Source: Eukaryota sp. GEM-RC1 (lineage: Eukaryota). Taken from it: a stretch of DNA of 64,000 nt. The position numbers were made by a program, and so were the translations under genes. The number at the start of each line of letters is the position of its first letter. Position 1 is the first letter of the stretch. Location: NCBI GenBank assembly GCA_040285855.1, contig JAUFOQ010000002.1, positions 682,001 through 746,000 on the forward strand, given 5' to 3'. Below the pieces are notes generated by a model, which saw only the letters and a list, made by a program, of their open reading frames with translations, was not told where the DNA came from and did not search any database. Positions 1 through 52,650 of this stretch are shown here, piece by piece.

Positions 1-3000
1 TTTCATCAACACTCCATCTAGATGAAAGAAACTGAAGTCTTTTCGTCGTATCAATGTCGATGGGATGAGCACTTTCTTCAACAACAGGAATCTCAACTTG
101 TTGAACTTGTTGAGTCGATTGAACAGTTAAAGCATGTAGTTCAAGACTTCGTTGTTCGTAAATATTTTTTGAATCACAAGAGCGAACATCATGAACTTCT
201 AATGGTACACCAGAAATACCAATCACAGATAATGCTGAAAGCATTAACAGTGTTCCATCCTTTTCAGAACAATGAAAGAATTTAAATCATTGCAAAAATC
301 GATTTTTAACAGTTGACCTGTTAACTCACCACTTGAACAATCAATAATAAATTGAATCTGTTTCTTTGGTAGTTTCAAACCGAAACCAACACAGAACCCA
401 AATTCCGTGATGTACATTATTGTGTCATAATGCTTAACATACACTGCATCTATAATTCTGTCATCTTTGTGACAGGAGCAAAATTCCCATACAGGTTGTT
501 CACCAAGCAGCTCCCTTTCATACAAGTCTAACTTTCGGATGGAACAAGTGCCGACAACTAGAACGAAATCGTCATAGCACTTCAAACTTTTGAATTCTTC
601 ATCACGATCAATTTCAGACATGTTTAAATCCATTAATGTTGAAAAATCTGAACAATCAACACAATTTTTTTCATCTTCCTGCACAAAAATAATCAACAAC
701 AGAGTCTTCGTTGCGACAACAAAACAATTTTTGCAGCAGCCATGTCAATACATTGAGAATCAAAACTGTCTCTGGCCAACGGCAACGGTAATACTCGTCG
801 AATAGTCTTTTGTTTGTCTGTTTTTGGCTTGTATTGAATCATAAATATGGGCCCTTCAAAAGCAATCAGTATGGCCTGGTTAAGCAATTGATGATGAAGT
901 GCAAACATAGTCAATTGATTGTCAAATGGTTTACACTGTGGTCTATCTTGATCAATACTGCGACTGAACCTTCGGAGTTCTTTATCAATGTTGTAGACTA
1001 CAAATCGTAATGTAACATTCAACACAGGAGTAGGAGTAGGAGTAATAGCAGAAAAAAATTCTGTATGGAGAGTTTCGACAACGTTGTTGTCTATATTCAA
1101 CGTTCCAATGGCAATTTTTGATTCAAATGAAAAAACAACATAGAAAGTTCTCATTTCTTCACGTGTAAAATTTAAGATTTGAACATTTTGTCCTAAATAT
1201 TTAGCAGTATGAGAAGAGGCAGTACAATACGACTTAGTCCAAGATGACAAATCCAAAGTACTTGTAGCTACTGGTGACTGGGGCAATGCAGTAGTTTCAC
1301 TAATCATGGGTTCAGGAAGGTCAGCGTTTTCGGGGATCATAGGTTCTTCAACCTTGTGTTGGGCTAAGGTAATTTCAGAATTTACTACTTCATTAAGTGT
1401 AGTACATGATGATGCACATAAAGGACACGCAGGATCAAAGCACATCAACAGGTCCTGTTCATCATTGACTTGGAAATTTAGTAACTGGAAATGATGTTTC
1501 CTTCCATTGACATAATCCACGGTAACTGGTGGACTGTTACTTTTCAGTAAGTTGAAATCAAGAATAATAATGTTGTCATACCATGATTTCAACACAGTTA
1601 TGGGAACCTCACCTTGTTCCGTTAAATATACCAAAATACGTAATCGATTGATACATCCAAAGGTGGATTCGATTGGTAACTCATGATAAGGCCAGTAAAC
1701 ATTCCAGACACGTTTTACCTCAAAAGATCCATGAATATCCAGCTCATTACTGTATACAATTAATTGTTTGAACCTCGAATCTTGACAATGCATTGGTGTA
1801 CCAACCTTGATAGATGGCTTTGCCATTTCCGAAACCAAATTGATATTGAAGTTCATGAGCCATACGATGAACAAGTATTGAAAAGAAGAAGGAATATGAG
1901 ACAAGAATTGTGGAAACTTATCACCAACAGAAATACCATTATGATAACCTAGATCTGTAGGTACAGGGAACAGTGATTTGGCACATTTAACTTCCTTGGA
2001 CCACTCATTATCAATACGAGTGTATTGAGTCAAATCACTACAAGGACTTGACATAATGTCGAAAGTTAATTTAATAGAATTTCTTGGTATATGCAAATGT
2101 ACGATATTACCCCACTGTAACAATTGGTTGTACATGTTCCAAAATTCTGGGTCATTGACAACTTTCAATGCCATTGATAAATTGAATCGTGATTTGATAA
2201 TGAATCTATACCAATCAAGATGGAACGTAAGAGAAAAATTTTTTAATGAATCAAGAGTTCCACGGCACTTGTTGACAAACAGTAGATTTTCAATTTCAGT
2301 TGTATTCTCTGAATGCAACATAACAACAGTGCTTTCGGTTTCACCTGGAGCTAGATCTGAAGTAATTTTAACTTTTGAACATAATGTCTCTGAACGAGTA
2401 CTGTCATCATCACTGTCATTAACTTTTAGAGATTTGGAAGATTTGACAATTTTTTGTTCATCAAACAATTTCTTTATAAAGCTGTTAAATTTTTTCCATT
2501 GACATAACCTTCCAACTTCAACCTAACTGAGAATGAATTGTCTACTACAGTTGAATGGAATGACTTATTGGGATAAGAAGCCACAATGGCTTGAAAGAGA
2601 GACGTCGTTGAATTTGGAGATTCAAAAAGAGAAGAGAAGATTGTTGATTCATTTCGAAACTTATTGAGTGTAACTTCAGAAGGATTTGATATGAAATTGA
2701 CAAGTTTTAGAGCAATGCCTTCCAATGATATTAATTGACTTTTGAGATGAGTATTAGAATCTTCCATATCCACGAAACGTGAAACTAAAGATCTTAGTTC
2801 ATTTAAATATCGCTCTAGTTTTTTCAAAAAAACTAATTTAGATAAATTCTTAAGGGCTTGATCATTAAGGGTTTGATCACGTGTTGGGACAATATCCAGA
2901 TTTTTAATAAATTCGCCACATAAAATGTAATGAACCAAGGATAATTTGAAAAACATGTCTGAACGTACAACTTTAGATTCTTCAATAGTAGAGAGTTGTT

Positions 3001-6000
3001 TGAGTAAAGGAATCGATTGTGAAAAGGTATACAAATCGTAAAATGACATAAAAGTTGTACGAGAGCAACGAATGAACGACATAGAATTGATACCCGCAAG
3101 AAGAATCAATCCAGGACACAGGTAATTGTTTGTTAAACAGAAAAATAAAAACTTGAAGTTGTAGAATGAAATATTGGCATTGGTGCAAATCTTTCCGAGA
3201 TAAGTAAGGGGAGAATTTAGTTGGTTTTTTGAAAGAACATTAGTGCGGAAAAGAACATCAACCGAAGACATGATGTTCTCGCTAGAAGGAACATCAGGCA
3301 GTTGACTGATAAAAAAATTCAGGGGGATTTGGACGATTACTGATTAAAAATTGAGGATTTTCAGCGATCTGTTTGATTGTTAACAATGGCTCAATCAACG
3401 AACAATTTAGAATTTCTGGTTCGTCGAAATGCAATCTCGAAGTTCCATTCGGATATAAGTTTGTCTGCACAAGACGTAACGAAAGTCCAGGAGAATTTCT
3501 TCCAGCACGACCAGAGCGCTGGTCCAAAGAAGCAATGGAGCAATGATGAGTGTCGAGAAGGTCATCTGCATCAGTTTGCTTTGACAAACCACAGTCAATG
3601 ACAAATTTGACCCCATCAATAGTCAAGGAAGATTCTGCTATATTGGTAGCAATGACAATTTTAAATTGTTTTTTCGCTGGTTTAGCCACAGCTGCATCTT
3701 GTTGGACTGAATCCAGACTTGAATACAACGGATACACACCTGGCTTCTCAGAAGAAGCTGGGATGTATAGACCACCAGATCCACTTTTTTCTGACTCTCA
3801 TACTCATTCTCAATAATATTACTGAGAGTTGTAATTTCTGGACTTCCAGGAAGAAACACGAGCAAAGTAAATCCTGTACATTCTGGTTCAAACTGAAAAA
3901 GTTTCTGAGACAGGGAGTAATAACAGAGACATAGTCGGGCTAACGCTCTGAAATTGATACTTTTATATGAAAGAGGATTACAGTGTTGAGTGAAATAGTC
4001 GTAGTATGAGTTCACATTGAAGACAAAATAAGTGTAAATATCAATAAAATGATCGTTGAAAACCTGTTGAAGTGTAGGTTCAAAAATCGGAGTTATCACA
4101 AGTTTTGATATTAAGGGACTATAATGAAATTCATTTTGACGAACAAAATTCACATCAAGGACAATCAGTGGATTGGTTCTTCCAGCTGCATGGATAGTAT
4201 AGGAGGGTTCGGTATCTAAATAATTTCCTTGTGTAAGGTAATTAAAACAAGGATTAGGTTTGTCCATAGTTGCCGAACAGATTACCACTCTCAATTTTGA
4301 ATCAGTTTGGGAAATTATTCTCATTTGTGCTAATAAAATGTCAATGTCACATTTTCTTTCATGAACTTCATCCACCATGATAGTTGCAAATCGAGACAGA
4401 TTGCTATTATTTGTCAGAAATTTAGAAGTGAAGGCAGCGGTTTGAACTTCGATAAATCTTGGTGAATGTACTGGAATGTTCGTATTCTTGTTGCCTGTTC
4501 GGTATCCAGACAGAGGAAAATCACTATGACATAAATCATTGATAAAATCGGAGAGTTTTGTGGCTGGTAGAACTCTAGGTTGACACACAATGATTGGTTT
4601 CAAAGTAACCATAACCACAACAACACCAGTTAAGACAGATTTCCCGGAACCTGTTTGACCAGAAACAATAAACGGAATAATATTGTTGTCTTTGACATGA
4701 TTTTGACCAACAACACGAAACAATTGATAAAAGTGTCTTTTCCTTCATTAACAAATGCAATACGGCAGTTACGTGCTTTTGAAATCAACTGAAAGCAAGA
4801 AAACACCAAGTGGAAGTAGGCGTCATTACTGTCAACTGTATTATTCCACTGTTCATTTAGTGTCAAAATTTGAAGAATTTGTGTTAGTAAATCACTTTCG
4901 CGGACATAAGATTTCAAATGTGCTAATTTAGAGCATACTTTAGGAAAATCAATTGATGTAAATGTACACGTTGGTTCCTCTGGTGAAGTCACAGTGCTTG
5001 GGAAATTGTAAACATAGCGGGGAGGTCGTCTCCATTGAAGATAATGATCTAACAACATCTTGTAATCACTATGATTTGACGCCAACCATGACAATGAGAC
5101 TAAGTATTCCATTGCCTGGAAACAGAAAGACATTAAAGAGAGATCTTTGTTTTCTTTTTTTTGTTCATAATGGTAATGGGCACAAAATGACAGTTGGAAC
5201 ATGAGCATACTCATAGTTTCAATTTTGTTTTCGAAAAAATCTTGATATACAGTAAACTGATGTCGGTAAACTTCTTTCCGTTGTACAACTTGTTTAGTTT
5301 CAGGGTCTTTAATTTCGACAATGCGGCTTTCTTCATCTGTATCCACAAAAGTATAGTGCTCGAGAAAATGACAAAAGTTAAAAAATCTTGAAAGTAATTG
5401 AGAAGTGTAGGACGAATCTCTGATATTATTAAAATCATCCCACATAATACTAAGAGAAGTTTGATTATATAGATCATCAAATCCGTCATCATTTAAAGGA
5501 TCGTCTGTAGGATCGTCAGTATGTTCAAAATCAGAATCTTTGACATCAACATCAGGTATTTTGGGGGCTTCTTTTCAATTAATTCAATAACATGAGCAAT
5601 ATCAAAGATTAACATTTTGAGTTTATAAGTAGCTTTTGACTTTGCAAACTTTTCAATCACTTTTTGGTTTTCTTTGTACATTTCCAAAGTAAATTGATTA
5701 TTCGTACGATCATACACTTGAAGGTTGAGTTTTTTCTCCTCCACAACAAATTGCAGATGGAGCATTGTTAATAAAATGTCCAGCATAACCTCAGGACGTA
5801 CCAAAACTTTAGGGTTGATATTTTGATACAAGGATGTGATACTTAATGAAACATCACTAAGTCTAAAAAGTTTGGAAGGGACATTCATTATAACTGTGAC
5901 CAGGAAGAAGGCAGAAGAGACATGGAGCAATAAAAAGGCAAAACGATTCACGAAAAGAAGGTTGTTTTTGAGGACAATGGGGAGGCATCTCATATTTGAA

Positions 6001-7014
6001 TCCAAGAGGCATAATCGGTAAACTCACAGTAGATTCTCGATTAGGGTCACACAATTGACACCAATATTTATGGAGGGATTCCAACGCTCCATCATAACTG
6101 AGCAAGTAATGATTAGCATCTTGTTGACATTCAATCAACTCCGATTCATAGTGTTTGGCCATGATGTAATTTTCAATTCTCCAATTACTTGGCGTGTCAC
6201 CAGGTTTGCAACACTCTTGTATAATTTGGGCCAGGAACGAGCGTCGTGATTCATTGTCTGGATTGGGAATGACATCTGGAGCGAGATCAGTTAAGTTTTC
6301 GGATTCATCTATAAAAACATGATTCATACATGAACAAACTTGGAAACCAGGTGTTCTTCCAGATCTTAGCACTGGATGGGCAAAAGTTTCATGTGGAATA
6401 CGGCAGTAACGATGCAATATGCCCATGTGGTATTTAGTTCTTTGATTATATTTCTTTTGTTTTAGCTGAGTTTCTTCTGTTGGCGGTTCTTGTGTTGGCG
6501 GTTCTTGTGTTGGCAGTTCTTCTGGTAGCGTTTCTGGCAGAGATGGAGGAGGCGATGGTGACACAGAAGTTCTTCTGGGTCTCTTTACTTCTGGGGATGG
6601 TAAACGATCATGGGGACCTGGATTCTGCTCAACGTCTCCATCGATAGAGAGATCACGTTTCCATGATGTGGACGAGAGGATAGAGCACAGAATAAGCGGA
6701 GACGACATCTTAGGACGAGGAGGGAAGCACGTATCCACACATTTCTTCAACCCACCATCCATATCCCGTGACCGTGCTATGGAAACAGTGTTTGGATGAT
6801 GAGATGAAGCAATGGCGGATGTGGACGAGAGGATAGAGCACAGAATAAGCGGAGACGACATCTTAGGACGAGGAGGGAAGCACGTATCCACACATTTCTT
6901 CAACCCACCATCCATATCCCGTGACCGTGCTATGGAAACAGTGTTTGGATGATGAGATGAAGCAATGGCGGATGTGGACGAGGCGAGGGGTGTTAGCAGT
7001 ATAATAGAAGACAT
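1..7014 (-). CDS. Giant (>2,300 aa, 3'-truncated by the window edge) polyprotein-like ORF: 2A peptide - Pro-rich linker - CCHC zinc knuckle - DEAH/RHA helicase - long uncharacterised C-terminus
   Basis: ORFs 5863..7014, 5493..6005, 4630..5445, 3638..4723, 3294..3737, 2474..3271, 693..2468 and 244..699, plus an open frame from ~260 to 1 (DGTLLMLSALSV...RWSVDE), abut. Each of the 8 junctions (~5866, 5565, 4730, 3788, 3314, 2490, 730, 263) is repaired by a 1-nt change in an A/T run, as in the host genes. One junction splits the helicase between motifs IV and V, showing the pieces belong together. Confidence 0.75.
3380..4680 (-). other. SF2 DEAH/RHA helicase core within the giant ORF
   Basis: Motifs in order: GQTGSGKS (I), CQPRVLPA (Ia), DEVHER (II), CSATM (III), LVFLPGSPEI (IV), PLYSSL, IVIATNIAESSLTIDGVKFVIDCG (V), QRSGRAGR (VI), PEILNCSL. 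Confidence 0.95.
5881..5922 (-). other. CCHC zinc knuckle (Gag/nucleocapsid-type)
   Basis: CLFCLLPGHSYNEC fits CX2CX4HX4C exactly. Confidence 0.75.
6613..6663 (-). other. 2A / StopGo ribosomal-skipping peptide
   Basis: WKRDLSIDGDVEQNPG-P matches the G-D(V/I)ExNPG-P consensus, with the W-x-x-D-L-x-x-D-G context of insect picorna-like virus 2As. Confidence 0.9.
6665..6982. repeat. Perfect 153-bp tandem duplication (2 units + 12 bp) in the leader upstream of the 2A
   Basis: GATGTGGACGAG recurs at 6665, 6818 and 6971; the 51-aa translation is repeated identically. Confidence 0.97.
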
Positions 7015-7164: not shown

Positions 7165-8873
7165 TTATTCTAAATATTGTAAAGAATGATGTTGATAAAG
7201 TAAAACATAGCCATTTAAAGAAATCTCAGTTAATACTGTCTGTTCGTCTACACCTTTCTTGCAATCACTATTGGTATCATGTAACCACCAAGAACCTTCT
7301 TTTTCCTTTGCATATGTCACACAGTGACCGTCAGCAAGGGAATCGTAATGACAGATCGCAGACAGCAGTCTGTATGTGTATTTTTCTTCAACACTACTTT
7401 TGGTCTTGGTTGACACTTTGGCGGTTGAGGTTCGACTGGTACTTCTTTCCCAATCACTACCTCTAACAAAATGCTGACTCCCACACTTTCTTTCATTTTC
7501 ATTAGAAATGTCAAAGACAGACAATTCTTCTGATGTTGGATAATGAGACAATGTGTAAATGTCCTTAAGTGGCAGTTGTGAGTTGATTTCATTGGTAGGG
7601 GAAAACTCAATCGATTCTGAACCCAATTGTGCTTCAGAAGACAGGAATAGATAGAGTGATAGATTTGAAGAAATAATAACTGGTTGAGGATGTCCAGTCA
7701 GTCTAATGATAAGAGCTTTTGGAAGAGAAGCAAAAGTTTCAGTAATTTCTGATTTTTGTTCAGGACAAGTAGCACAAATTATTTCTTTTCGAAAAGGTAG
7801 ATGAGCTTGCAACAATGATTCGAGATCGGTTGGTCTAGAAGGATACCGCCTTTGGATACTTTCCTTGTTAATTTCCAAGGCGAAGTGAATTTTAGATGTT
7901 GGATCAGTCCCACACCAAGAACATTTTGTTGTTGTTTTAATACAGAAACAAAATGCATTAACAGCACAAGAATGCTTTAATTTTTGAGTTATCAACAATT
8001 GATCTAAATCTTGCTGAAGTGATGATTTGACATCTAACTGAGTCTGAACTTTTTTTTGGTGATGGTTTCTCATCTAAATCATATCCATAATATTGGAAGT
8101 CTGTAGTATCAGTTTCTTCTGATTCAGACTGTGGTTCAAATTTTTGACAAAGAGTGTAATTCATCATTTGATGAAGATGGCAAGGTGGTGCGGAATTCCT
8201 TGTCAAGTGTTTTTAAAAGTTTGGCAAGGAAATTGAAAGGATCGTGTTGACCCGCCGCAAAAACAGGATAAATGTCAGCGATTTGCGCACGAACACCTTC
8301 AATATCTTTCGAATAAAAACAATTGAAGAGAGGAGTAGCAGAAGTATCAAAATCTAGTTCTTTGAAATGATTTACATTGAGTTCGAAGAAACGTTCAATG
8401 TGACGTATAATAAAATGGATAACTGAATAGACATAACAACAATCAGATGAAGTAGAAATTGAAGGAGTAGTAGTTTTAACAGGAATAGCAAGAGCCTCGT
8501 TAACTGTTTTAGTCAAACTGGAAAGAGAAGAAGGGGATACAATCAGGTTATGAGATGAGAGGGTGGTTTTTACGATGAAAGATATCACGTCGCTAATACA
8601 CTGTGTATCTTCAAGGGGAGTGATTGCACGAAGATTAGAGGATGATGTTAAGCTGAAAAGGAACTTTGTTTGTGCAACGTCTGATGTTACAAGAACGAGA
8701 TTTAAATGGTATTGAATATGTCCATTATACACTACGACAATGAAGAAGTCGCCCGCAGTGTCTTGGACGATGACAATTTCAACATCTGTAACTTCCGCAG
8801 GAATGTCATTTACGAAGTCTAGTTGCATCTGTTGTTTGGGAAAACGTTGGCGGACACGGAATGATGTTGACAT
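7165..8873 (-). CDS. Divergent ubiquitin-specific protease (peptidase C19/USP); two homopolymer frameshifts near 8140 and 8055
   Basis: Cys-box-like SSDCCYVYSVIHF, GQHDPFNFL (QxD box), CSWC...CATC Zn pair, LPKALIIRL, His box YRLLSAICHYDSLADGHCVTY, WWLHD and GYVLLY, in canonical USP order. Confidence 0.85.
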
Positions 8874-9045
8874 GTTTGTGCAGAGAGGAAAATTTATGTC
8901 CTAGTCTATTATTACAACAAAGATTCCATTTTTGACTTTCAATCAATACAATAGGGTGGGTTTATTCATTCCGTGATGAATTTGTCATTCACGAGGATTA
9001 ATGTTTTACTATAACTAACTAATACAGGATTAATAAAGGAACCAG

Positions 9046-10563
9046 TGAAGTAGAAATTGAAGGAGTAGTAGTTTTAACAGGAATGGCAAGAGCCTCGTTA
9101 ACTGTTTTAGTCAAACTGGAAAGAGAAGAAGGGTTAGGCAAAATCAGGTCTTGACACTTAATTCGTGGAAGTCGCCATTGATTATTCGTACGATCATACA
9201 CTTGAAGGTTGAGTTTTTGAGAAAGTTCCCACACTAAGAATTTAAGTGTCGGCTGCCACAAACCTAAGAAATCTTACCAACATAAACGTGTTCAAAAATT
9301 TGTTCACTAATCAGTCTGTTGCTGGGTTGAGTACAAATGGCCCAGAACAATGAGCCTTAACTTTATTAATTATCTTGTGACTGGTTCTTTTCATGATGAG
9401 AACTACAGATTTACTTGAAGATACTAAAACAATTTTTTAGTAACGAAAAAGTTTAAATCAAAAACATTCTGTATGAAGAGTTTCGACAACGTCGTTGTCT
9501 ATATTCAACGTTCCAATGGCAAGTTTTTGATTCATGTGAAAATCTGGATCACCATATTGGAGAGCAAATCTGTGGACCAAGTTTTGTTCACTTCGTTCTT
9601 TTCTTGAATAATGGGTAAGGCGTCTACGTCTAAAAAATTTCTCTTCATAGAAACAAGCCTTGAAAGTTTTTGGAACTGAATCAGTTGTAATTAAAACTTT
9701 TTGTAACTCAAATACAACTGCACTTGTGGATAAACAGTAGATTTTCAACATCCACTGCCGTAGCTTTGATGATGCAGCCTCCCTATCCTTATCTAACTCA
9801 ACTCGAGACTGACTCCATTGCAGGGTTTCGGGCTCAGTTGAGTTTAGATAGTCCCAGTATGAAAGGCCTTATTACTTTATGCAAAATTCTGTCTATTAAC
9901 AGGACAGTGATTGATCTGGATATCTCCCCCAACTTAATTGATATTGAAAGTCACATTTTCTGTTTTTCACCAACGAATTTTGTTCCCAAAGAAGCGGGGG
10001 TGGCAGGATTTGAAGAGGTGATGTATATGACATAAAGACCATTTACATCTGTTGATCTACTCTGCTTCTGAATTGTACAGAGGAACGAAGATATACCACC
10101 AAGCTATTGCTCAAGATGTTCCCATTGTGACTTTGAGAAGAAGAGCAGAGAGAAATGAAACGGAGGGAACGAAGAAAGTTATACAGTATGGCCGATGCAC
10201 GATTACTGATTAAAAATTCAGGATTTTCAGCGATCTGTTTGATTGTTAACAATGGCTCAATCACGATGGAACGAAGAAAGTTATACAGTATGGCCAAGAC
10301 AAATCACAAGACAACCATACTTCTCAGAGGACAATCTTCAAGCGGATCTACGAAACATACAATGCAAGAGGCATTCAGCAAGAATCAGTCAGAAATCCAG
10401 TGTTTTCAGCAGAGGAGATAACTGAAGGAGCATCATCACAGAAGAAGTGTATAAAGAGAAAACCACGGAACAACACATTCCTTCAACCCACCATCCAAAT
10501 CCCGTGACCGTGCAATGGAAACAGTATCTGGATGGCGGAATTGAGAAATGGCGGATGTGGACG
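9046..10563. other. Mosaic of short near-identical snippets copied from the adjacent island genes, mixed with unrelated fragments
   Basis: 9046-9133 = 8448-8535 (1 mismatch); 9177-9218 = 5693-5734 (exact); 9466-9534 = 1058-1125 (2 substitutions, 1 indel); 9720-9748 = 2265-2293 (2 mismatches); 10199-10263 = 3333-3397 (1 mismatch); 10473-10563 is a diverged copy of ~6737-6826. All are direct orientation, in scrambled order. Confidence 0.92.
10166..10295. repeat. 28-bp perfect direct repeat bracketing a 74-bp insert that contains a helicase-derived snippet
   Basis: GGAACGAAGAAAGTTATACAGTATGGCC at 10166-10193 and 10268-10295. Confidence 0.97.
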
Positions 10564-11107
10564 CAAAGCAAAGCAATGAGTGCAACCACGATACACCAGA
10601 TGACAACCCAACTCATCTTGCCCACTTGTCGAGTGCAGGAGACAAATTGACAAGAAGAGCGGAATTGCCATCTATGTAAAGAGGTCACTTCTCATAGATA
10701 TACGTGGCAGCAAGCACATATCGTGACCAAAACTTACTTTTGGCATCATCACAATGTCTATAATTAGAAAGATGGAGGATCATACGCATGTCAAGAGAGA
10801 AGAAAAGTGAAATTGCAGTATTCATTTTTGGAGTCTTGTCTTGTTTGTCTACAGATAGCAGACATCTTTTCTGTCTTCGGATATCTCCTACACTTCATAT
10901 ACAACATTTTTGTACTTACTTACTTGACATCATTCATTAATTAATACATCAACAATGTTATTTTCAATGCTCTTGTGTATCACAACATTGACAATACATT
11001 GAACTAGAACGTATATGTTGATTTCGTGTTAACAAGGAAGAGACTTGAAACAAAAGAAGAACGGGATGCTTTATTGATATCTAAACAAAGAAAACTACAA
11101 TAATGAT

Positions 11108-12258
11108 CTATAAAAACAAATTTAAATCGCATATGGTGTATGAGGCTAGCAGTATCACGAGTAGTATCACCAGAGCAATTCGAATAGCTCTTTCAATTAC
11201 TGGGGTGGTGGTTTCACGAAGGGCGGAAGCAACTGCACTAAAGATGAGTTCAAGTTCCTTCTCGTCAAGTGAATGCTTAGAGTTTGCTAAAAGAGTAATC
11301 ACTGCCTCATGACCAGTCTTGACAACGCTGTCAACGTCAACAATCTTCTTAGGTTGAGGTTCAGTTATCTAGAATTAGATCAGTGGATTCATGTATGAAA
11401 GAAAAGTGAACTTCACTTCACATCTTCGAGTCCTATACTAGACCATGCACACTTATCTCATTCAATAAACAACATCTTCTTTATTTTGTTCTACTTGCCA
11501 GTTGTTTCTGCAAAACAGGTCCTACATTTAACTTCTTTATCTCTAACTTCTTTCTCTTATCGCTGCCTGAGATAGGCTTTTCCTTTCCACACGGCTGTCC
11601 CAAAGTCTTGGAAACAAGTGATCCTAGGGAGGATTGAATTTCATTGTTTTCAGTAGGAGTAGAAGGAGCGGATTCAACGGGAGAGTTACGAGAGGACTTT
11701 GTGAGAGGTTCTGGAGTTGTGGCTTCTTTGCTCACAACTTTAGCTTCTTTAAGGTGCTTGTTCTTTTCTTAACAATATGAGTTCTTTCATGAATAACATT
11801 AGGAGCAATTGAATAAAACTCAGAAAGATCTTCGTTTTCTTCAGCATTCATACCATACACTTTCTTAAAACGTGAAGAAATGTCTGGTACTTTTGCGCCT
11901 TGGGAAGCTAAATATTGAGTTCTAGAATTAATAAAGTGAACAATATTCTCAAAAAGTCTTCCTTAGACTGTACCAAGTCTGAGAGGAATTCATCATTGTT
12001 GGTACTTATAGAAAGTCCATCTGTTGAATTATCACGAGGTCGTGAAATTAGAATATAATCCCCATTGGGACCGAGCTGAACACTTTTACCATCCACCTTT
12101 GTCGATGTATAACTAAAGACGTTATAGACATCCTGGTGCTTGTTCATATTCTTTCTTCGGAAAGCGTTAGAGCGTCGTTTCTTGATATAATTGACAGACA
12201 TAGACGTAGCATCATCTGAAGACTGATATGAGAGTGAATAAAGACATACAACTGACAT
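11108..12258 (-). CDS. Hypothetical protein, fragmented (frameshifts and a probable short intron); C-terminal hydrophobic segment
   Basis: Consecutive same-strand ORFs 11908..12357, 11481..11735 and 11108..11302. A CTAAT-TCTAG branch/acceptor motif ending at 11369 is in frame with the last exon. No recognised homology. Confidence 0.35.
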
Positions 12259-12301
12259 TGGATTTTTTGCCGGAAAAATATTTTCCTTCACTATCAATTC
12301 A

Positions 12302-13105
12302 ATGACCAACAATATCTTACAAGATTGTTTGGCAACATTCTTTGAAACATATCTCATTCAACAAATACAAGCATGTGGGTGTATCAAATGCATGGCCATA
12401 GGAGAACTTAACTCTCTTGACAAATTGACATCACTTTTGTCTCACATACATCGTATGAGCTTTCATCCAAATCTTGAAGATGACTTAACTTCTTTATCTC
12501 CTTTACTTTCAATCTGCTCACATATACTAGCGAAATGTAAGACAATGCCGTCGATTCCATTGTGGAACGTGGTATTCAAAATTGTTTGTTGTTGTTGTAG
12601 TAGTGTAGATGTTGAGGGAATGCTAAATTGTTTTTCTGTCCTGTTATTTGTACTTGCAAATTCTTTACAAGCAATGTATAACACGTTGTTGATCACAAAG
12701 TGTGCAAGAATATTGTTTCTCAATGATATTTCCGAATTTCTTTGGAGTATTAGTGATCGGCAGTGTCTAGTTAAAGTATTGACAGTTTTGCTACTGTCCT
12801 TGAATGTTGATGAATGTAGGGAATTGTTACTTACTGAAGTATTCCAAGAGTTTACAGGATGTTCTGAACCATTGACAGATATAATTCTTATGTGTGAGAA
12901 CAGTCAAGATGAGGAGTTTATTGAAATGTCCGTTGTTGTTAAAAGGGTGTCTTCGTTGTTCAACTTGTTTGATGTGAATGAGATTTGTGAATGTGATGCA
13001 GATTGTGACAAGGAGTTTGTGAGTTTCATTGATTCATTGCTTAAGTATAAAGAACAGTTTTATTTTATAACATATAGCAATGAGGAGATTACAGTCGACA
13101 TATAG
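12302..13105 (+). CDS. Hypothetical Cys/Leu-rich protein
   Basis: Uninterrupted 267-aa ORF; no recognisable motif. Confidence 0.5.
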   Translation: MTNNILQDCLATFFETYLIQQIQACGCIKCMAIGELNSLDKLTSLLSHIHRMSFHPNLEDDLTSLSPLLSICSHILAKCKTMPSIPLWNVVFKIVCCCCSSVDVEGMLNCFSVLLFVLANSLQAMYNTLLITKCARILFLNDISEFLWSISDRQCLVKVLTVLLLSLNVDECRELLLTEVFQEFTGCSEPLTDIILMCENSQDEEFIEMSVVVKRVSSLFNLFDVNEICECDADCDKEFVSFIDSLLKYKEQFYFITYSNEEITVDI

Positions 13106-13561
13106 AGAACACAGATCGGTGTGTCCCACTTCTACGAGGAACATCAGCAGTGGAGGGAGGATGAGGATTACCTTGGATTTAGTGAAACAGAAGCAGAAGG
13201 TACCTTGTCTTCAGATAGAATGGCATCAACGAGGGCTAGGAGAGAGAACTCATGTTTGATTTGTAAGATCAAGGGAGTGTCTTTAAAAGACTCGGATATG
13301 AGTTAGAGTGCTCGAAAGTAGTCCAATGACACGATACATTGCTCTATTTCATCAAGATCGATCCCAACACCAACATCACCTTTTACAAAGACATATAATT
13401 TGACATATGAGACGATAGAAAGCTCATCATGGTAGAATAAGCTTCTAAGAATTATGTACGACCAGCATTTTCCATACAGTGGAGATAGATATATAAATTA
13501 TAATGAAAGGAAAGTTTCCCTGCACAATCTGCATCTTAAACATCACCACTTCACACACTCA

Positions 13562-16011
13562 ATGTCCATTATCAACACACTTACAGACGAACAGGCTCAG
13601 GTCTTCCAAGCTATTACTCATGCTAGACCTTCTAAGCGTCGAAATTTCTTCATTACTGGTGGTGCCGGATCGGGCAAGTCTTACCTACTGTACTGTCTTA
13701 AACAGTGGTGGTCTAATGCGGGTTCCAAGCTAATGAGACCCAATGGCCATGTCTTTTTTACTGCTACTACTGGTGTTGCTTCCACTGTCTTTGGTGGTCA
13801 AACCCTACACTCTCTCTTTGGTTATAATTTTATCCGTAATGAAAAACCAATATCTGATGTCATTCGCTCTATGCCTTCAAGTGTTAAGTCTGTTTTACGA
13901 ACTATTAGTGCCCGAAATTCAATGCTTGTTATTGATGAAATTTCAATGTTGACTGCTGAATTATTCAACAGAGCATCAGATATATTTAAAGATTTAATGA
14001 AGTCTCAGTTACCATTTGGTGGACTTCAAGTAGTAATTTTTGGTGATTTTTTGCAACTTGCACCAATTGTAAAGTCTGACTCAAACACACGTACTGTTCT
14101 TCAACTTTCAGACTTTACGTTTTCATCACAGTCTTGGAAGGACTTGAATTTGAATTTTATTGAATTATCTGGAAGTATCCGACAACAAAATGATGTCAAT
14201 TTTTATAATTTTTTGAATGAACTACGTCTCGGTCTTTTTGATGACTATATGAAACATATTTTATTGAAACATAAGTCACTAGCCAAAAATATTGAAAGTC
14301 CAACCAAATTATTTGCTAGAAACAAGGATGTCGCCGACGAAAATTTAAAACAATTTGATATATTATGTGAACAAGGTAATGAAAATGTTGAATTTCATTC
14401 CCTCGATAAGTTCAATGAAAACTTAATTAAATCAGAAATTGTTAAAAGTTGGGCATTTGGTAAGCCTAATGAGGAACAAATGGAAAAGGCTGTTGATTTA
14501 AATTTAAAAAAATTATCAAGTAGGCTAAACGATTTTGCCGAACAAAAATTTCACTGTGTCGTCGGGGGTTTGGTAATGTTTACCCAAAACAAACCAGATC
14601 TGGGCCTAGTAAATGGGTCAAAAGGCAAAATTATTGATTTTTCGGAAAGTTCACATTTCATTAATGTAAGATTCGGGAGGGACGAAGAACCAATCAAAAT
14701 TATTCCGACTAAATTTGAAATTGAGGTGTTGAATGAGAAGAAAAAGCCTGTAATTATAGCATCCCGATTGCAATATCCTCTTCGTCCTTGTTGGGCAATA
14801 ACAGTCCATAGATCTCAGGGACTAACAATTGAAGGAATTGAAGTATCATTAAATTTTTGGGAATATGCCCAATTGTACGTTACATTGAGTCGAGTGAAGA
14901 ACTGGAACTCAATTAAAATTTTAGATATTTCTTCAAGATTTCCCAAACCAAGAATTGATCTTTATCAGTGGTATTATTCCACTTTTCACCCCTGTCGACC
15001 GGTTACAAAACCTCTTTATCCTTTGCCATTAGAAGATGAAAGAATTGTTAGAAATTGGCCTTCTGTGTTGAAAACTTTTGATGAATTTTCGTCCAATATT
15101 ATTTCTAGTGTTGGTCAAAGTACAGAAACTGTTGATGTTCTTGATCCAGTCAGTGAAGAAATTAAGGAAGATTTGGTGGAAAAAGATGTTCCAAAAATTG
15201 AAAATTTTAATACCACTTCTGATTCAGTTTTAGAATTATTCGATAATGAAGTTGTTGTCTCTGGAAGTGATAGTGGAGATGATGAAACTGATGATGATGA
15301 CGATGCGTCGTCTAGTATGAATGATTTTGTTGTGAATGATGACGATGAGTGTCTCAATAATCAAAGTGTAAGTGCCATCAATTCTGATTTAATTTTTAAC
15401 AAGCCTGTGCCAAAACTGAAAAAAACAACAGTTACTGCTTTGCCTAAATTGAGACCAAATCTATTGTGTCGAAATACTCTCAAACCAAATTCGAATTTAC
15501 CTAGTTTGAAATTATCAAAAAAGTTACAGATCATGTGGACACTGAATCTGTCAACAGATTACCAAATTCTCTTGGTATTCAGACAGATTTTGAAAAAAAC
15601 TTGAACAATACTCATAATATTGCAATGCAGACAGAAACAAAGGTTCTCACAATTGTCCACGATATTGTACCACTACACTGGAACCAAAATGATTCAACAT
15701 CAGACTGTCAATCACATATGAGTTTGAAACTTGAGTTGTTAAAAGATTTAAATTTATTGATGGCCAAAATTTTGAATTTTCATTTAAATGATAGGGACAA
15801 GTACTTTAATGTGTTGTCATTGACCAATACTTTTGTTGTGTCGATACTAGATTTAAATGATGAATTGGTTTGTGATGAACAATGTTTGGGAATATTGGAT
15901 GAATATCGTGAAGTGATGTGTGAGTATTGTTGTGGGATTGGATATAAGGAGTCGTTTTCGTTGGCTGTGATGTTTGCGAGGGTGATGGGGGGATATAGTA
16001 GTGTTAGTTAA
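13562..16011 (+). CDS. PIF1: PIF1-family (SF1B) DNA helicase with acidic low-complexity C-terminal extension; frameshift in the A-run near 15520
   Basis: LTDEQ, ITGGAGSGKS, ATTGVAS, GGQTLHSLFG, IDEISML, PFGGLQVVIFGDFLQLAPI, RQQND, LVNGSKG, RLQYPLRPCWAITVHRSQGLTI, QLYVTLSRV. Likely start MSIINTL at 13562. Confidence 0.93.
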
Positions 16012-16060: not shown

Positions 16061-16606
16061 ATATATAGAAGAAAAAATTATGAGCAACAACAATTCAATA
16101 CACATACGACACGTTGATTGAGATTGATTCTCACCAAATGTTGTTTCACCAAATGTTGTATCACCAAATGTTGTATCACCAAATGTTGTTTCACCAAATG
16201 TTGTAGTTACAAATGTTGTTTCACCAAATGTTGTATCACCAAATGTTGTATCACCAAATGTTGTCATTACAAATGTTGTAGTTACAAATGTTGTTTCACC
16301 AAATGTTGTCATTACAAATGTTGTAGTTACAAATGTTGTTTCACCAAATGTTGTCATTACAAATGTTGTATCACCAAATGTTGTCATTACAAATGTTGTA
16401 TCACCAAATGTTGTATCACCAAATGTTGTAGTTACAAATATTGTTTCACCAAATGTTGTAGTTTCAAATGTTGTATCACCAAATGTTGTTTCACCAAATG
16501 TATATATAGAAGAAAAAAATATCAATGTCAACAATTCATTACACATACGACACTATTGTCATTACAAAAGTTGTATCACCAAATGTTGTAGTTACAAATG
16601 TTGTAC
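16061..16606. repeat. 15-bp minisatellite (core CAAATGTTGT; TCACCAAATGTTGTA and variants), ~25 units at 16131-16500 plus ~3 at 16560-16606, each block preceded by a ~52-bp header
   Basis: Exact 15-bp phase over 370 bp; header TATATAGAAGAAAAAA...ACACATACGACAC at 16061-16112 and 16502-16553. Confidence 0.97.
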
Positions 16607-16919
16607 ATGTAGTTATAACTTGGTGTCTTTGTGTCTTCTGATGCATGAAGCTTCATGAAGCAAACCTTAATGTTTTCCTTGGGAGGATAAGATGTCAATG
16701 TGATGTATGTGTTGTAAGATGGTTGTACAACGTTGATTTTATTCTTGACATGGTTGAACACGGTTCACAATTCTAAGAACGAATACCTGCAAACACGTCT
16801 CTATCTTGAAAGAAGCTCAACACTGGATATCAAACGATGTATGGAATCCATCAAAGAAGGTATAAGTGAATCAGTTTGGGGATGTGGTTATGGGGTGAAG
16901 AGTATTTGGGGTAAAATGA

Positions 16920-16957
16920 TTTTGGGGAGTATGCACCCCAAATGAATTCAACACTAG
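16920..16957 (+). mobile_element. Candidate Helitron-like 3' terminus (hairpin + CTAG followed by T)
   Basis: TTTGGGG-AGTATGCA-CCCCAAA stem-loop (16921-16942), 11 nt spacer, CTAG (16954-16957), next base T; co-oriented with PIF1. Confidence 0.45.
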
Positions 16958-24589: not shown

Positions 24590-25330
24590 ATTTTTTACTA
24601 TTCAATTAATTCTAAATGTACTGTAATAGACTAAACAGCTAAAATTTGATAGCATTAAAGCAACACCTGTCGCTAACAAATCATATAACAGCTGTGTCCT
24701 CATTAAAGGAACTCACAGCTAGTAGAGCTTTGGAGATTATTAGAGGAATTTTTTCCAAAATTTTAACCACGATACGATTCATCCATAACATATGATCAAA
24801 ACGTGTGTTCATCCTATTTTTTACAATTTATCCGAAATCGTTTAACAAATTATATACACTTTTTTCCATACGGCCGTCGATTGAAACAGCCAAAGGGCAT
24901 AATTCGTACTCAACATGCTTTACATGTTTTGGAAGCCATCAATGGTTTCTTGTACTTATCCTGTTTGGCTGGTTCAGAAATGTCTAAAGGGGAAGTTTCA
25001 GAGAAAGCATTCTTTAAAAATGACATTTTACATCAACAACAAACAATTTGTCTGAAGAAGAAGGGACAACAACGTCCACTCTCCGTTTACCAAAAACTTG
25101 ATTCTGTTTTTCGTCATTACATTTATTTGATTCTAAAGATCTTACATTGTCGAAGTGGTTCAACAAATGATTCAATTTTGTAAGACTTACACATAGCTGT
25201 ATTTGGTCTCTTACAGCATCGTGCATACAGGTTCAATAAGTTATGTAGCGATTACAACTTAACAAATGAAAAAACGTTAACTGTTTTCCACAGCTACATT
25301 GAAGATCATTTGACAAATTGTATGGCCGTA
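24590..25330 (-). mobile_element. Degenerate 3' part of a CRE/R2-like non-LTR retrotransposon (Zn finger + restriction-like endonuclease)
   Basis: MHDAVRDQI...EPL...VVVPSSSDKLFVVDV; inverted near-copy of ~44780-45380. Confidence 0.8.
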
Positions 25331-25529
25331 AATAGCAACGAAGTCTCATCGTGGTGGTCCAATTTTAATTACATTATGTTTGTATTTGTGTTCTTTTTGT
25401 TTCTTCAGTGTAATTTTTATGGATATAATGAAATATATAGAAACTCAATATCATCAAAGCAAGATTCCTTAGAATCGAACCTTGTTGAAGCGTTGTCTTC
25501 GTAATACACACTGACGGATAATAAAGCTC

Positions 25530-25870
25530 TCGAAATCATTGTTTAATCTCTGGAACTAACTGGTTTTTTGAAATGAGTTCAAAAACTTTCAAATGATTTT
25601 GGATTCCAAGAGCATTATTACTGAGATCGTCTCTTTTTAAAGAAGAATTGCTCTGAATTGCTCGAATAAGCAAAACTGCTTTTAGAATTGTAAAGACAAT
25701 TCTGTTCTGCCAAAAAGAGCGGTCAAATATTTTGTTAGTTCTACGAGCAACAACCTTTGCAAAATGATCTAAGAACTTCAGGGCGAATTTACCCAAACGA
25801 CTATACATAGAAATCGCAAATGGGACAAGTGATATTGTGTTTGTGTTCTTTACAAACGTATTAGATAAAA
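25530..25870 (-). mobile_element. Non-LTR retrotransposon RLE C-terminal fragment
   Basis: LVPFAISMYSRLGKFALKFL...FWQNRIVFTILKA, homologous to 46663..47058. Confidence 0.7.
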
Positions 25871-25994
25871 TGGTCTTAAATAGAGCTCTATAACTGTCTT
25901 CCAATACAGTTTACACAGTTTTTTCCAAAAAAAAGAGGAAGATTTACAAAAACAAGTTACCAAATCTACGAAAAGTGATTCAGTAGATAAAACA

Positions 25995-26065
25995 TAGGGT
26001 TGTACAAAATACGTCACGCACTGCTCCGTGACGTCACCGTGACGGTGAAGTCGGGTGCAACCCTA
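25995..26065. mobile_element. 71-bp hAT-type micro-MITE just upstream of NDC80
   Basis: TIRs TAGGGTTGTAC / GTGCAACCCTA; 8-bp flanks ATAAAACA / GTAAAACA; palindromic interior. Confidence 0.8.
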
Positions 26066-27855: not shown

Positions 27856-29325
27856 TTGAAATAGTGATAAATATTGAAGTTGTATAAATATGTGTTCTGT
27901 TGGTTATAGTATCCTTCTTAAGAAATTACTGGCACTTTTGTGTCTCTCCGATGCACTTATTGGAGCCCTACAATCTACGTCTGTGGACACACTGCTTTGT
28001 ATCACGATCTCACTTAGAACAATTGTTCTAATAGTCATGCTGATTCCATTTTGGCCAAGTTGCTCAGTGGTAACTACTTGTAGGAATTGGGTGGTTCGTT
28101 ACTACAACGTTTATTAGACTTCTTTAGATTTTATGTATCTTTAAGAGATAATACATGCTTTTTGTAAATACAACATTCATACTTGTTGTTCTCGTCTCTT
28201 GACTAAAATCAGCTACACTGTTATAACATACTTTTGTTGAATTAAATCGGTGTAGAAAAAACTGCGTTTAAATTCCACATTTCAAGCACATAGCTCTTTG
28301 ATGAATTCGTTTACAAGAGGAGTCTGTCATCCATAATTAACACAGTAGTAGTCAACAATCCAAAGACAAGTAATCTCACCAGTACTGCTGAAGAGTCACC
28401 ACAGACAGTGTTTCAGTATTACAGCACATTATCAATCTGATAATGACCAGTTTTCTCGAGACAAAAACTGTGCAATTAGAAGCAGTTGTTACTGGCACGT
28501 GTATGCTTGTGTTTTGTGCAATTATGGAGGTACAACTGTAGTTATACGGAACATACACTTATTACAATGACTCGAAAACTTGACGGACACATAGAGAAGG
28601 CTATACGATAGCCTAACACGATGTTTCACTCATAATATACATTGCTTTTTTTTATCTATAAAGATGATTTTATGTTGATCCTTAAAGTTCAGATACGAAA
28701 TTCAAATTCTGTCACACGTATAAGAAATCTAAAATTTCAAATTCAAATTCTGTCACACGTATAGCCAATCTCCGTAGAGAAGGTAGGAATTAATTTGGTT
28801 CTAGAAAACACATGTATTGGAACAATGAAGTTGCGCAATTGCCACTACAATTGTATATAGTCAATACAATAGACTCCGGTCTTAGGGAAGTGGACCTTCT
28901 TGATGTAACTATGACCGACAGTTTTCAAATTTAAAGCCACAGTCGTCTGATCAACAACTTGATGATAGATGAATGTTTTAGTGTTTCCATTGGTTAATCT
29001 TATTACGATCGACAATGCTACCATAAAGACTACTGATTCCCTTTGTATAGGCTCAAATTCAATGTTGCGGTACTCATCATAAATATCCTTTCATTATACA
29101 AAAGAGAGATTAATAGTAAGGGGTATGCTTGTATTGTTTTTAAGGTTGCTTGTATTAGGACCTCGACGATATTCAAGTTAGGTTCCTCCATTGTATATTT
29201 TTATAGTAGCGTATCGTAGAATTGGACTTTTTACTTTAGTTTTTTACTTCCTACATAAATCATAGTAGGCATTCTCTTATTCAAGCATCAATACGTATTG
29301 GGTTTTGTAAATAGCCTACTTCGAT

Positions 29326-31990
29326 ATGTTCAACTCCCGTACCACTCCTTCTAGATTACAAACCTCAAGGTCTTCTGGTTCCGCCCAGAGTTATGCTTCC
29401 GCCTATGGTTCCGCCCTTAGCCTCACGACCACCGCTGTCTCCGTTCCGCCTTCGCTCACTTGTCTAACGCCAGGTGCTGTTTTTCTGTGGAAAATCTCTG
29501 TCTTCCTTCGAGATTTTCCCGATCCATCTGAGCTCCCTACCGAGCGCCCTGCTGTTGGTTCTCCTAATATGAGCTCTAAAGTCGATGTACTGAAGAGCAC
29601 CCAACTAGATGAACATGCTGCTACGGAAATACTTTCCTTAGCCAAGGCAGTATTCAAAACATTGATGCCTAAAGATTCGGAAGCCTGGAACGCTGTATTA
29701 GAAAACCGCCGCCAGGAACCTTCGTACTGCCTCTCGAGGGAAAAATTTCCGATGAGCAAAGACTCATCGATGCTCTTAACGAATGTGAGGTAGTTGCTGC
29801 AGGTATAGATGGTAGTGATGCCGATTCTTCTGCAGTAATAGGTCGAACAAAATATTCTTCTGTTTCTTCGTCTTCCCTCCAACGATTTCCTCAAGCAAGA
29901 AGTCAAAATAAATAACATGCCATTTATGGCTACACTTGACTCTGCTTGTCAAACTTCATGTTTTTCCAGTGGCATTGCTGAAGCCACTAGTTGCCGTATT
30001 TCACCATCGAATCTCTCGTTTACCATGGCTGATGGTATAAAGGTACCTTCTCAAGGTAATGCTGCTTGTATGCTTACCTTCTGTTTCGATCGCCTCATTG
30101 CTCCTCAGGTTCATCTTAAAACCACGATTCCGGTTATACCAGGTAAGAAACAGTTTCTTATTGGGTGTGATATCCTAAAGAAATTAGGCCTTCTGTACAG
30201 TAATAGCCTACTCATTAGACTAGACAAGGAACACAAAAAGATCCTTGAGGATGTGTCTTGCCTCGATCACCTCATCACTCAACCGTTCTCCTCACCAACA
30301 AAGATTCTGAACGAAACCGATCCCCCTTCAAACCCTATAACTTTGTCATCAACTCACTTTCCAGTGAAGAACTGGTTCTTTGCCGCATAGAACTACCAAC
30401 TGACCTCGCTGATCAACTAAAGGCTCTTATGAACTCAATTCTCTTGTATTTATGGCCAACCCCACCCCGAGGGAATCACTTGCCCTGAAATGCCCATCCC
30501 TTTCTATGACGAATCAGCTTACCTGCCCGCTACCTCAATCCCGAAAAGTTACGCATAGTTAACGAGCAATTTGACGAACTTATAAACTTTATAAGTTCGT
30601 CAAATTGCTATATATAATATAAAGGATGGCTTCGCAGAAAAAAGCCCCCATGATTGTCCTTTCGCATCTCCTATCGTGATCATCCTTTATCCTGATGGCA
30701 AACGCCCTAGACTCACAGGCGACCACTCTGGCTCACCTGGGATAAACTCCGTGACGAAACCACTACAAGCAAACTTGCCAAGAAATACCGATTGTATCCA
30801 TGTGTCTCTCAAAAGCTCAGTTTATTGCAACGCTGGATTTGCCAAAGGCTTTCTGGCAACTCAAACTCAGAGAACAGGACTGGATGAAAACCACCTTGGC
30901 TATACCTGGTCGCAAAATTTTCTTTAAACGTGCTGCCTTTGGCCTAAACAACGTCCCTTCGTTCTTTCAGAACGTAATGAACGAGATACTTAAATTGGAA
31001 AATGTCTTCATCTACTTAGACGATGTGATTGTCACAGCCAACACTCCTGAATATTTTCTTAAAACCCTCCAAGAAATCTTCTTTCGTGCTAAGCCTCATC
31101 GTCTTTGTTTCGGTTTAAAGAAGTGTTCCTTTATTTCTAGCGATCGTCCTATTAGAATTCTCGGAGCAATCTTCGAGAACGGTAAACGCTCTATTGATCC
31201 TACCTGCATTGCTGCAATCCTCGAACTGCCTCTCCCCACATCGATTGGCGATCTGCGCTCTTTCATTGGATCCATAAATTATCTCCGTGATTGGATCCCG
31301 GGCCTCTCTACCCTTCTCGCTCAGTTTACTGCTTTCACCAAGAAGGACCCCCACGACAGCAGAACAGTGAAAGCCAAATGGACAACTCTGCACACTAAAT
31401 CCTTCATCCGAATCAAAGAGTAGATCTGCCAGTCAACCACCTTAGCCCTCCCTGATCCCGAAGCAAAAATTATCATCTCAACTGATGCATCAGATACTGC
31501 CATAGCAGGTGTTGTGTGGAAACAATTGGATAATACTCCAACTACTGCTCCTTTTGCTGTTCAGAAACTCGAACCGATCTCGTTTTACTCCAAACTCTTG
31601 TCTCCAAGCCAGCGAAATTGGCCAATCATTCTAAAAAGACCTTTTTGCTCTTATCTGGACACTTAATCAACCCGCTTCTTCTTACTTGCTCTTTTTCTTA
31701 CTATCTTCTGTGATCATAAGAATTTAGTGTTTCTTCTTAACCAACCAGAAAAATCTAGGATTGTTACTCGATGGATGACTCTCCTCAGTAACTTTAACTT
31801 TGAACTTATTCACGTAGAAGGTAAAAATTTTTATTCGCCGACCTACTTTTACGTCTTACCCCTGCTCACCCAGACCTCAAACTTATTCCTAATGCTCCAT
31901 TCCCAGACTCTGATGATTCCTCCCCTTACAAATCTGAAACTTCTGACTCTTACTCAGTCACAATAATTCCAGACGACTTGCAGATAAGCC
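29326..31990 (+). mobile_element. Degenerate Ty3/gypsy-like LTR retrotransposon internal region (gag remnant, protease, RT, RNase H)
   Basis: Protease ATLDSACQTS...LIGCDIL; RT LDLPKAFWQL, FGLNNVPSFFQ, IYLDDV, LRSFIGSINY; RNase H STDASDTAIAGV, CDHKNL, RWMTLLSNFNFELIHVEGK. Multiple stops and frameshifts; no integrase seen. Confidence 0.92.
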
Positions 31991-32039
31991 CAACCTTCTC
32001 GATAACTGCTGACAACTCAGAAACTCATCCATGGCTAAA

Positions 32040-32290
32040 TAAATTAAGAACCGCTCAACAACTCGAAATGCCTAATGACGGAGTTTTTAAATTTATTTGA
32101 AAATTTGTGTTCAGAATTTGCCAAGAAGTTTAACAGATCGTACTGGGAGAGTAAATTTGCCTTTTCGATTTTTAGGTCAATGTATAGATATGTTGATTCC
32201 ATTTTGTCCAAGTTGTTTGGAGGCAACTACTTTTCGGAATTAGGTAGTTCGTTTGGTAATTCGTTTTCATAGTGTTTATTTATTTGTTGT
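32040..32290 (+). mobile_element. Non-LTR RLE 3' fragment
   Basis: FAKKFNRSYWESKFAFSIFRS parallels the FW..RIVF.IF motif of the other copies. Confidence 0.6.
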
Positions 32291-34140: not shown

Positions 34141-34623
34141 CAGTGGTCGAAAATTTTCCACCCGGACGCCACCCAGGTGGTGGGTGGAACCGGGTGGCGT
34201 CCGGGTGAGTTTTCATTTCCACCCGGGTGGTCACCGGGTGGCATTAAAGAACGAGACATAAGTTTTGGTGCAAAAACTACTTTATACACCATATACGATG
34301 AAACTTAAAGTACTTTAGCAGTGTGTGATATAAAATAACTAACAATGAAGAACTTTGTACAGGGTTGGGATTAAAACAACCCTCTGAAAAATAAATAAAT
34401 AAGATGATATTAGCCTATCCGAGCCTAGAAATAACTCCCGTTAAAATAATTGTATTCAGGACACGTTGAACATCGAAGTATGTATTCAGGAAGTCATGGA
34501 TTGAAGATGATGGTATGACCAAAATTATCCACCCAGTACCACCCAGACGCCACCCGGGTGGTGGGTGGAACCGAGTGCCACCCGGGTGGTTTTCATTTCC
34601 ACCCGGGTGGTTTTCAAACACTG
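34141..34623. mobile_element. 483-bp hAT MITE nested in the previous element
   Basis: TIRs CAGTGGTCGAAAA / TTTTCAAACACTG; CCACCCGGGTGG repeats; TSD GTTCTCAT (34133-34140, 34624-34631). Confidence 0.95.
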
Positions 34624-34699
34624 GTTCTCATCAATGCTACGGGTTTTGTTGCGAAATTTGTTGCACAGAATCTTATGGGATGTTTAGAAGTGGTGAACC

Positions 34700-52503: not shown

Positions 52504-52650
52504 GGAATCTATTATGGCCTTCTGCGGACTGTTGGACGGTCTGGAGAATGGTGGTTTAGGTTGTGTAATATATTTATTTTATTGTTTTTTACTGCTTATA
52601 ACTTACATGTATGGTTTTTATTTTTGTAATAGATGTTGATATTGTATGTA

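Follow-up and report, generated by a model that had tools for sequence, protein, structure and literature searches.

This locus raises the question of how short, scrambled pieces of neighbouring genes came to be collected in one place, and whether such a collection serves a purpose. The pieces lie at positions 9046-10563 of the window, as we call the whole 64,000-nucleotide stretch of DNA analysed here. The window represents a compact eukaryotic genome with PRP6-like, CEP44, Ndc80, eIF2B, Cse1 and WD40 genes (Pfam). Frameshifts split many of its genes, and since housekeeping genes are among those affected, indel error in the consensus is likely. The array is most likely best explained by known capture chemistry operating inside a large cargo element.

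Composition of the array

BLASTn of 8501-11500 against the 64-kb window returned six pieces of 32-103 bp in direct orientation, matching a giant DEAH-helicase gene and a USP gene in shuffled order. Their bit scores range from 45.5 to 155, compared to a maximum of 40.1 among 100 shuffled queries, a value that the 32-bp piece 4 barely exceeds. Piece 1 (9046-9133, minus strand) corresponds to the USP gene (source 8448-8535, 87/88 bp, one synonymous difference). The others correspond to the giant gene and are likewise on the minus strand: piece 2 (9177-9218; source 5693-5734, 42/42 bp, identical to the neighbour), piece 3 (9460-9542; source 1052-1133, 77/83 bp with one indel), piece 4 (9717-9748; source 2262-2293, 29/32 bp), piece 5 (10196-10263; source 3330-3397, 66/68 bp) and piece 6 (10461-10563; sources 6725 and 6878, 87/103 bp), the last being a diverged version of a 153-bp repeat unit in the N-terminal part of the giant gene.

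The first-pass annotation had described shuffled snippets in direct orientation, and this description holds, with all six matches above the shuffled maximum. Piece order and source position are uncorrelated (rho -0.2, p 0.70), the last four sources are in ascending order (1052, 2262, 3330, 6725), and six direct pieces out of six give a one-sided p of 0.016. The zero to three differences that had been counted for five of the copies apply to most of them but not to piece 3, which has six over 83 bp, and the "giant ORF" named as their source is indeed where the pieces match but is a gene split into eight overlapping frames.

Two further pieces could be assigned. The spacer at about 9830-9985 that had been read as LRR-type is a fragment of an LRR-family gene (9841-9987, plus strand), 51% and 56% identical to the LRR-family proteins P0001 and P0002. 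A Fanzor-like nuclease fragment lies at 9545-9652 on the minus strand (61% over 36 amino acids to P0086, library E 8e-4). P0086 itself matches solved Fanzor1 structures (E 4.5e-8); comparing the array ORF directly with solved structures did not find this link, so the Fanzor identity is a two-step one, via P0086. Both pieces are without a source inside the window. According to the available text of PMC10530073, Fanzors associate most often with hAT elements. A second chimera was observed at 25539-25910 (minus strand), where the reading frame continues from the 3' end of a non-LTR element into an LRR fragment (45% identity with P0001 over 42 amino acids), showing that LRR scraps are present in other repeat patches too.

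The six family pieces amount to 413 bp and all eight assigned pieces to 668 of the 1518 bp, leaving 850 bp unassigned. For seven of the eight, the minus strand is the sense strand (one-sided p 0.035), the LRR piece being opposite. All eight come from multi-copy or mobile genes, which is the enrichment over housekeeping genes that the first-pass annotation had proposed to check; its impression by eye that housekeeping snippets are lacking is borne out by a self-comparison of the whole window, which found none of these and no second patch of giant-gene or USP snippets outside the array.

Searches of the remaining sequence gave little. Pfam on the six frames of 8.9-13.4 kb returned nothing for the array spacers, NCBIfam had no match for the three array frames (3/3), and the spacer 10268-10504 yielded 16 candidates but no homologue at E <=10 in a search of longer proteins only. 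The whole-library search covered one of six frames of the array and gave two matches. All three array ORFs were absent from an exact protein look-up, which shows only that these sequences are without a gene call; predicted folds were unusable (pLDDT 29.8 and 38.7), and Atlas scores were all under 0.9. In the array, short fragments of genes form a patchwork that is non-coding.

The pieces are not of one age. Piece 5 is flanked on both sides by a direct repeat of 28 bp without mismatch (10166-10193 and 10268-10295), indicating that this piece was inserted later than its surroundings. The recipient stretch, 10031-10460 on the plus strand, has an open frame on either side of the 102-bp insert with its duplication; a homologue search and NCBIfam found no source for it. 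Divergence differs among the pieces (chi-square p 2e-4, with small counts) and, measured against the neighbour copy, tends to increase towards the right end of the array (rho 0.77, exact p 0.051; with piece 5 dropped post hoc, rho 0.90, p 0.042). The changes, 7 synonymous and 19 non-synonymous, are as expected under drift. The heterogeneous divergence, the later insert with its duplication and the selfish-looking, multi-copy nature of the sources agree with the earlier proposal that short fragments were captured iteratively.

The donor gene families

The giant gene (244-7014, minus strand, eight frames) encodes N-terminal hairpin repeats and a DEAH/RHA helicase (Pfam, NCBIfam), presumably with a 2A-like peptide near 6620, and belongs to a dispersed multi-copy family. 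Fifteen predicted proteins match it at about 90% or more on seven contigs and five further ones at about 65%, and its helicase core is present in at least 10 separate copies including the one in the window. Copies outside the window were compared as predicted proteins, not nucleotides; P0074, a C-terminal cluster member with no match in the window, was excluded. The USP (UCH) protease gene (7165-8873, minus strand, two to three frames) belongs to an 11-member cluster, two members of which are the window's own fragments, and has at least 8 copies. On the other side of the array, larger gene remnants in both orientations occupy 10900-13450, among them an ORF (12392-13102) with a 4-member cluster, and are followed by a stand-alone Pif1 helicase without a Rep domain (13562-16011, plus strand, 19-member cluster). 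With four multi-copy genes spread across the first 16 kb, this whole stretch can be regarded as multi-copy; the four housekeeping controls are all single-copy by cluster size.

These genes had been called virus-like, a label that the searches do not bear out. Capsid, packaging ATPase, polymerase and integrase are lacking among the 22 ORFs scanned, a search that covered the block as far as it lies inside the window, and viral contigs contained no relative of any of three proteins (3/3, close relatives only) or of one motif. Among outside helicases, the closest are of the cellular DEAH/HrpA type. Metagenomes contain 14 distant relatives of the helicase at 25-49%, and the six examined are generic DEAH/RHA types. 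An RBR/RING domain had been suspected where the giant gene ends, but it was dropped, being without Pfam support.

The 153-bp repeat is in frame and lies at 6665-6982 (minus strand), upstream of the 2A-like motif, with two copies here and two to seven among eight proteins. It folds as a sense-strand hairpin of about 80 nucleotides (z -4.96), possibly a structured RNA or a fragile palindrome.

Origin of the individual pieces

The earlier claim that the snippets were copied from the neighbouring genes stands for part of them only. Pieces 1 and 2 are compatible with the neighbour copy as donor, the residue state of piece 2 being shared with two of six paralogues. Pieces 4 and 5 contain private changes: three in piece 4 are absent from all four paralogues spanning the site and one in piece 5 from all seven, and in both cases the paralogues side with the neighbour. 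Pieces 3 and 6, in contrast, hold paralogue residues. In piece 6, the neighbour's residues H, N and M are replaced by R, D and L, a triple present in five of the seven repeat units of P0023 but absent from the other seven repeat-bearing proteins. Piece 3 carries D, as do all seven other paralogues, the neighbour's N being private, and also a C found in P0068 only (one of seven paralogues). Judged from these residues, the two pieces likely come from distant paralogues rather than from the neighbour. P0023 and P0068 sit on two contigs, neither of which is the window's; they do not overlap, and a single recombinant donor lineage is compatible with the data. Random genome-wide sampling would hardly yield six such pieces (p <1e-5 even at 100 copies in 27.6 Mb) and no such piece is found elsewhere in the window, which ties the capture to the block.

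The same residues bear on the idea that the array is a one-off local scar or a scrambled deletion derivative that was copied in cis from the neighbours and then decayed. A span of 8.5 kb holds all six sources, the last four of them in ascending order, and pieces 1 and 2 are 99-100% identical to the neighbour. In animal Pack-TIRs, 57% of the donors lie within 15 kb according to the available text of PMC8277862. However, the paralogue-specific residues of pieces 3 and 6 are missing from the neighbour, the divergences are heterogeneous, and the LRR and Fanzor pieces are sourceless within the window; we consider such a scar improbable. An assembly or amplification chimera is extremely unlikely. 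The frameshifts in housekeeping genes do reveal an imperfect consensus, but the pieces differ by up to 16% from the neighbour and include paralogue-specific changes, the contigs are megabase-sized, and amplification chimeras are mostly inverted and exact.

The surrounding block and its putative right end

At 16956 the multi-copy block comes to an end, 21 bases short of the PRP6-like gene. A putative right end is located at 16875-16956 (plus strand), where three short G-rich subterminal repeats are followed by a terminal motif of hAT type next to the PRP6-like gene; a 15-bp tandem repeat array (16131-16605) lies near the end of the block. The window also contains paired inverted-repeat elements with 8-bp target duplications (25995-26065, 33224-35332, 34141-34623, 37950-38460 and 56537-57249, one nested in another) and two further inverted pairs (45578-46252 and 52649-53253). 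Target duplications of 8 bp are a mark of hAT transposons. The end at 16956 has the six invariant terminal bases common to the eight ends of four paired elements, the 8-base end motif alone occurring 61 times in the window, and four of the five target duplications start with GT, as does the flank at 16956.

Further support comes from P0024, a giant-gene protein truncated after the helicase. Its tail matches the plus frame of 16929-16952 in 8/8 residues and then departs, a match expected by chance at about 3.5e-5; the residues past the shared eight are not giant-gene sequence, and those before them differ. This is what would be expected if the giant gene reads outward through the far inverted repeat, on the evidence of a protein sequence only, which may rest on a predicted intron. 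The window was found to contain neither a left end nor a target duplication, a transposase or an inverted repeat matching the end at 16956, and neither the 22 ORFs scanned nor the six frames of 8.9-13.4 kb contain a hAT transposase. Within 15 locus tags, the USP and giant genes are together in 2/9 cases, Pif1 and the giant gene in 1/14 and USP and Pif1 in 0/9. The block genes are thus not shown to be fixed neighbours elsewhere, by a test that is itself doubtful, since none of the seven named C-terminal fragments has a tag adjoining a helicase fragment. On balance, we favour the view that a single hAT-ended inverted-repeat element of >17 kb makes up the block, reaching from a left end outside the window, beyond position 1, to 16956, and that the array probably lies inside this cargo transposon.

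The sequence at 16920-16957 had first been read as a Helitron 3' end: it forms a 7-bp hairpin followed after 11 nucleotides by CTAG and then T, a configuration found twice in the scan against 0.08 expected. After the inverted-repeat scan and the P0024 comparison this reading was demoted. A rolling-circle element ending at 16957 could have taken up its flanks step by step, by end bypass or by nested insertion into family copies. The hairpin and CTAG geometry is the one described for Helraiser (PMC4778049, available text), the block contains Pif1 and subterminal tandem repeats, and stepwise capture is known from maize (PMC3288121, available text); mosaic cargo, a Pif1-family helicase, tandem repeats and a hairpin-CTAG-like end are likewise features of the Helitrons with captures described in the accessible parts of these two papers and of PMC13085455. 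The block differs from them in several points. A HUH/Rep domain is absent from the six frames of 8.9-13.4 kb and from the 15 Pif1 copies listed of 19, and the Pif1 scores 143 bits to cellular Pif1 compared to 82 to Helraiser. Judged from a protein comparison, P0024 appears to have lost the left arm of the hairpin, the end motif is that of the window's hAT-type ends, CTAG-T arises automatically from such an end next to a target starting with GT, and the array itself is free of hairpin-CTAG relics. The Helitron-type capture among the mechanisms first suggested is weakened accordingly, and we regard it as a rather improbable origin of the array.

Formation of the array

We give about an even chance to the explanation that the array is filler DNA, left when gaps were repaired repeatedly with template switching among family copies inside a large hAT-type cargo transposon. 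This explanation builds on the pieces, their mixed ages, the distant donors for two of them, the multi-copy genes on both sides and the one transposon-like end. Breaks would arise in the element through excision or fragile hairpins and would be repaired via strand invasion into a sister or an ectopic family copy. The new strand would slip elsewhere on the same template strand, copy 30-150 bases and return. Such slippage on one template strand would result in family enrichment, direct orientation and shuffled order, family copies as templates would introduce paralogue-specific variants and mixed ages, and copying out and back could leave the piece 5 insert with its 28-bp duplication. Occasional foreign cargo (LRR, Fanzor) might be taken up during the same repair. 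No function of the array is implied. Template switching often yields inversions, and the complete lack of inversions among the six family pieces has to be counted against this mechanism; the available text of PMC2575219 contains nothing on fragment orientation.

Precedents exist for the individual steps. Template switching in interrupted gap repair picks up stuffer sequence from other loci (PMC3814204) and filler DNA can be a complex mosaic (PMC2686159), as described in the available parts of these papers. The fillers reported there for Ac/Ds, P and maize p2/p1 are, like the array, short templated multi-donor mosaics that need no function; however, they measure 1-131 bp and come from one or two nearby sites, whereas in the array no fewer than 8 pieces have been assigned over 1.5 kb, which differ in age and some of which match copies on other contigs. 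With about 12 or more pieces in 1.5 kb it is far more complex than the fillers of 8-131 bp in the available text of PMC2686159, and the likely reading is an unusually complex instance of filler capture.

Similar to the block are also Pack-TIR or Pack-TYPE elements including Pack-hAT-N8_XT, inverted-repeat elements with fragments from several loci (PMC8277862 and PMC6431247, available text). They resemble it in origin as well, since gap filling or template switching is proposed for them and gap filling accounts for most animal Pack-TIRs, a hAT case included (PMC8277862, available text). Here, in contrast, the pieces come mostly from the cargo genes of the element family itself, and the inferred element is >17 kb with whole DEAH helicase, USP and Pif1 genes, whereas the Pack-MULEs in the cited text reach <=7 kb. 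In addition, one end is seen in our case, whereas the second end and the target duplication would lie beyond the window.

Alternatively, the capture might have been RNA-templated, with a non-LTR reverse transcriptase jumping among abundant mobile-element transcripts and pasting the cDNA into the block. We consider this unlikely, although the rising divergence (p about 0.05) together with the common sense of seven of the eight pieces (one-sided p 0.035) keeps it alive. Donors on different contigs would suit capture in trans, the 28-bp duplication resembles a target-site duplication, and reverse-transcriptase remnants are present at 47695-48680. On the other hand, there is no poly(A) at the eight boundaries examined, no retroelement end joined to the array and no duplication of >=9 bp around the whole array. 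The LRR piece has the opposite sense, and the other 47 kb of the window are free of family snippets.

Since donors can be traced to single paralogues, the locus is suited for asking whether transposon gap repair samples family copies in trans. On the preferred explanation, gap repair with template switching, the array also suggests that a little-studied protist harbours a family of very large cargo elements with inverted repeats, in which helicase and protease genes are carried whole. The putative >17-kb element, with its genes each in about 8-19 near-identical copies, is arguably more interesting than the array. A literature search for a cargo element combining a 2A-DEAH helicase, a deubiquitinase and Pif1 listed papers on Polinton-like elements and an insect mobilome survey, none of them a match by title and opening lines; such a large element is apparently undescribed so far.

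A possible function as acquired memory

The earlier comparison with piRNA clusters and spacer arrays leads to the question whether the array is used. A putative acquired small-RNA memory locus would store snippets of selfish elements to silence them. Like piRNA clusters and CRISPR arrays, the locus concentrates mobile-element fragments and has a strand bias and a hint of polarity; it differs from them in being only 1.5 kb long, without repeats and placed among the element's own genes. The exclusive origin of the identified pieces (8/8) from multi-copy or mobile genes, the dominance of one strand and the left-to-right rise in divergence (rho 0.77) would fit such a role. Furthermore, piece 6 keeps the hairpin of about 80 nucleotides (z about -5), with four of seven changed pairs kept and only 7 of 2000 random mutants folding as well. 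In maize, captured fragments feed siRNA, as stated in the available text of PMC13317346.

Against a memory speaks that repeats, a leader and a uniform piece size are lacking (32-147 bp); the search for CRISPR-like repeats in the array found only one 10-mer in three copies. There is no Rfam match, the array sits between multi-copy genes and not in single-copy host DNA, the reference copy for the divergence did not donate at least two of the pieces, and the hairpin may be plain inheritance from the donor. A scan for sigma-70 promoters showed no excess, the motif being irrelevant to a eukaryotic host. Taken together, we find the memory very unlikely. A very improbable claim, too, is a broader one, namely that a giant hAT-ended element of >17 kb, with its 2A-DEAH helicase, deubiquitinase and Pif1, has a growing internal archive of same-strand snippets that are sampled in trans both within the element's family and from other mobile elements, added on one side in the course of time and read as small RNAs or guides. 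Either the transposon or its protist host would then operate a sequence memory that is acquired and lacks repeats. If polarity and strand bias were real, a eukaryote would possess an acquired memory that works without repeats, and the locus could show whether such patchworks feed small-RNA silencing.

Other repeats in the window

Decayed copies of non-LTR retroelements with reverse-transcriptase remnants, which we take to be CRE/R2-like, were observed at 24622-25352, 44750-45353, 46663-48680 and 55586-55918, and a decayed LTR retrotransposon pol with a reverse-transcriptase domain at 29311-32050. At 61392-63489, a tandem duplication of about 830 bp with 89% identity surrounds a small membrane-protein gene.
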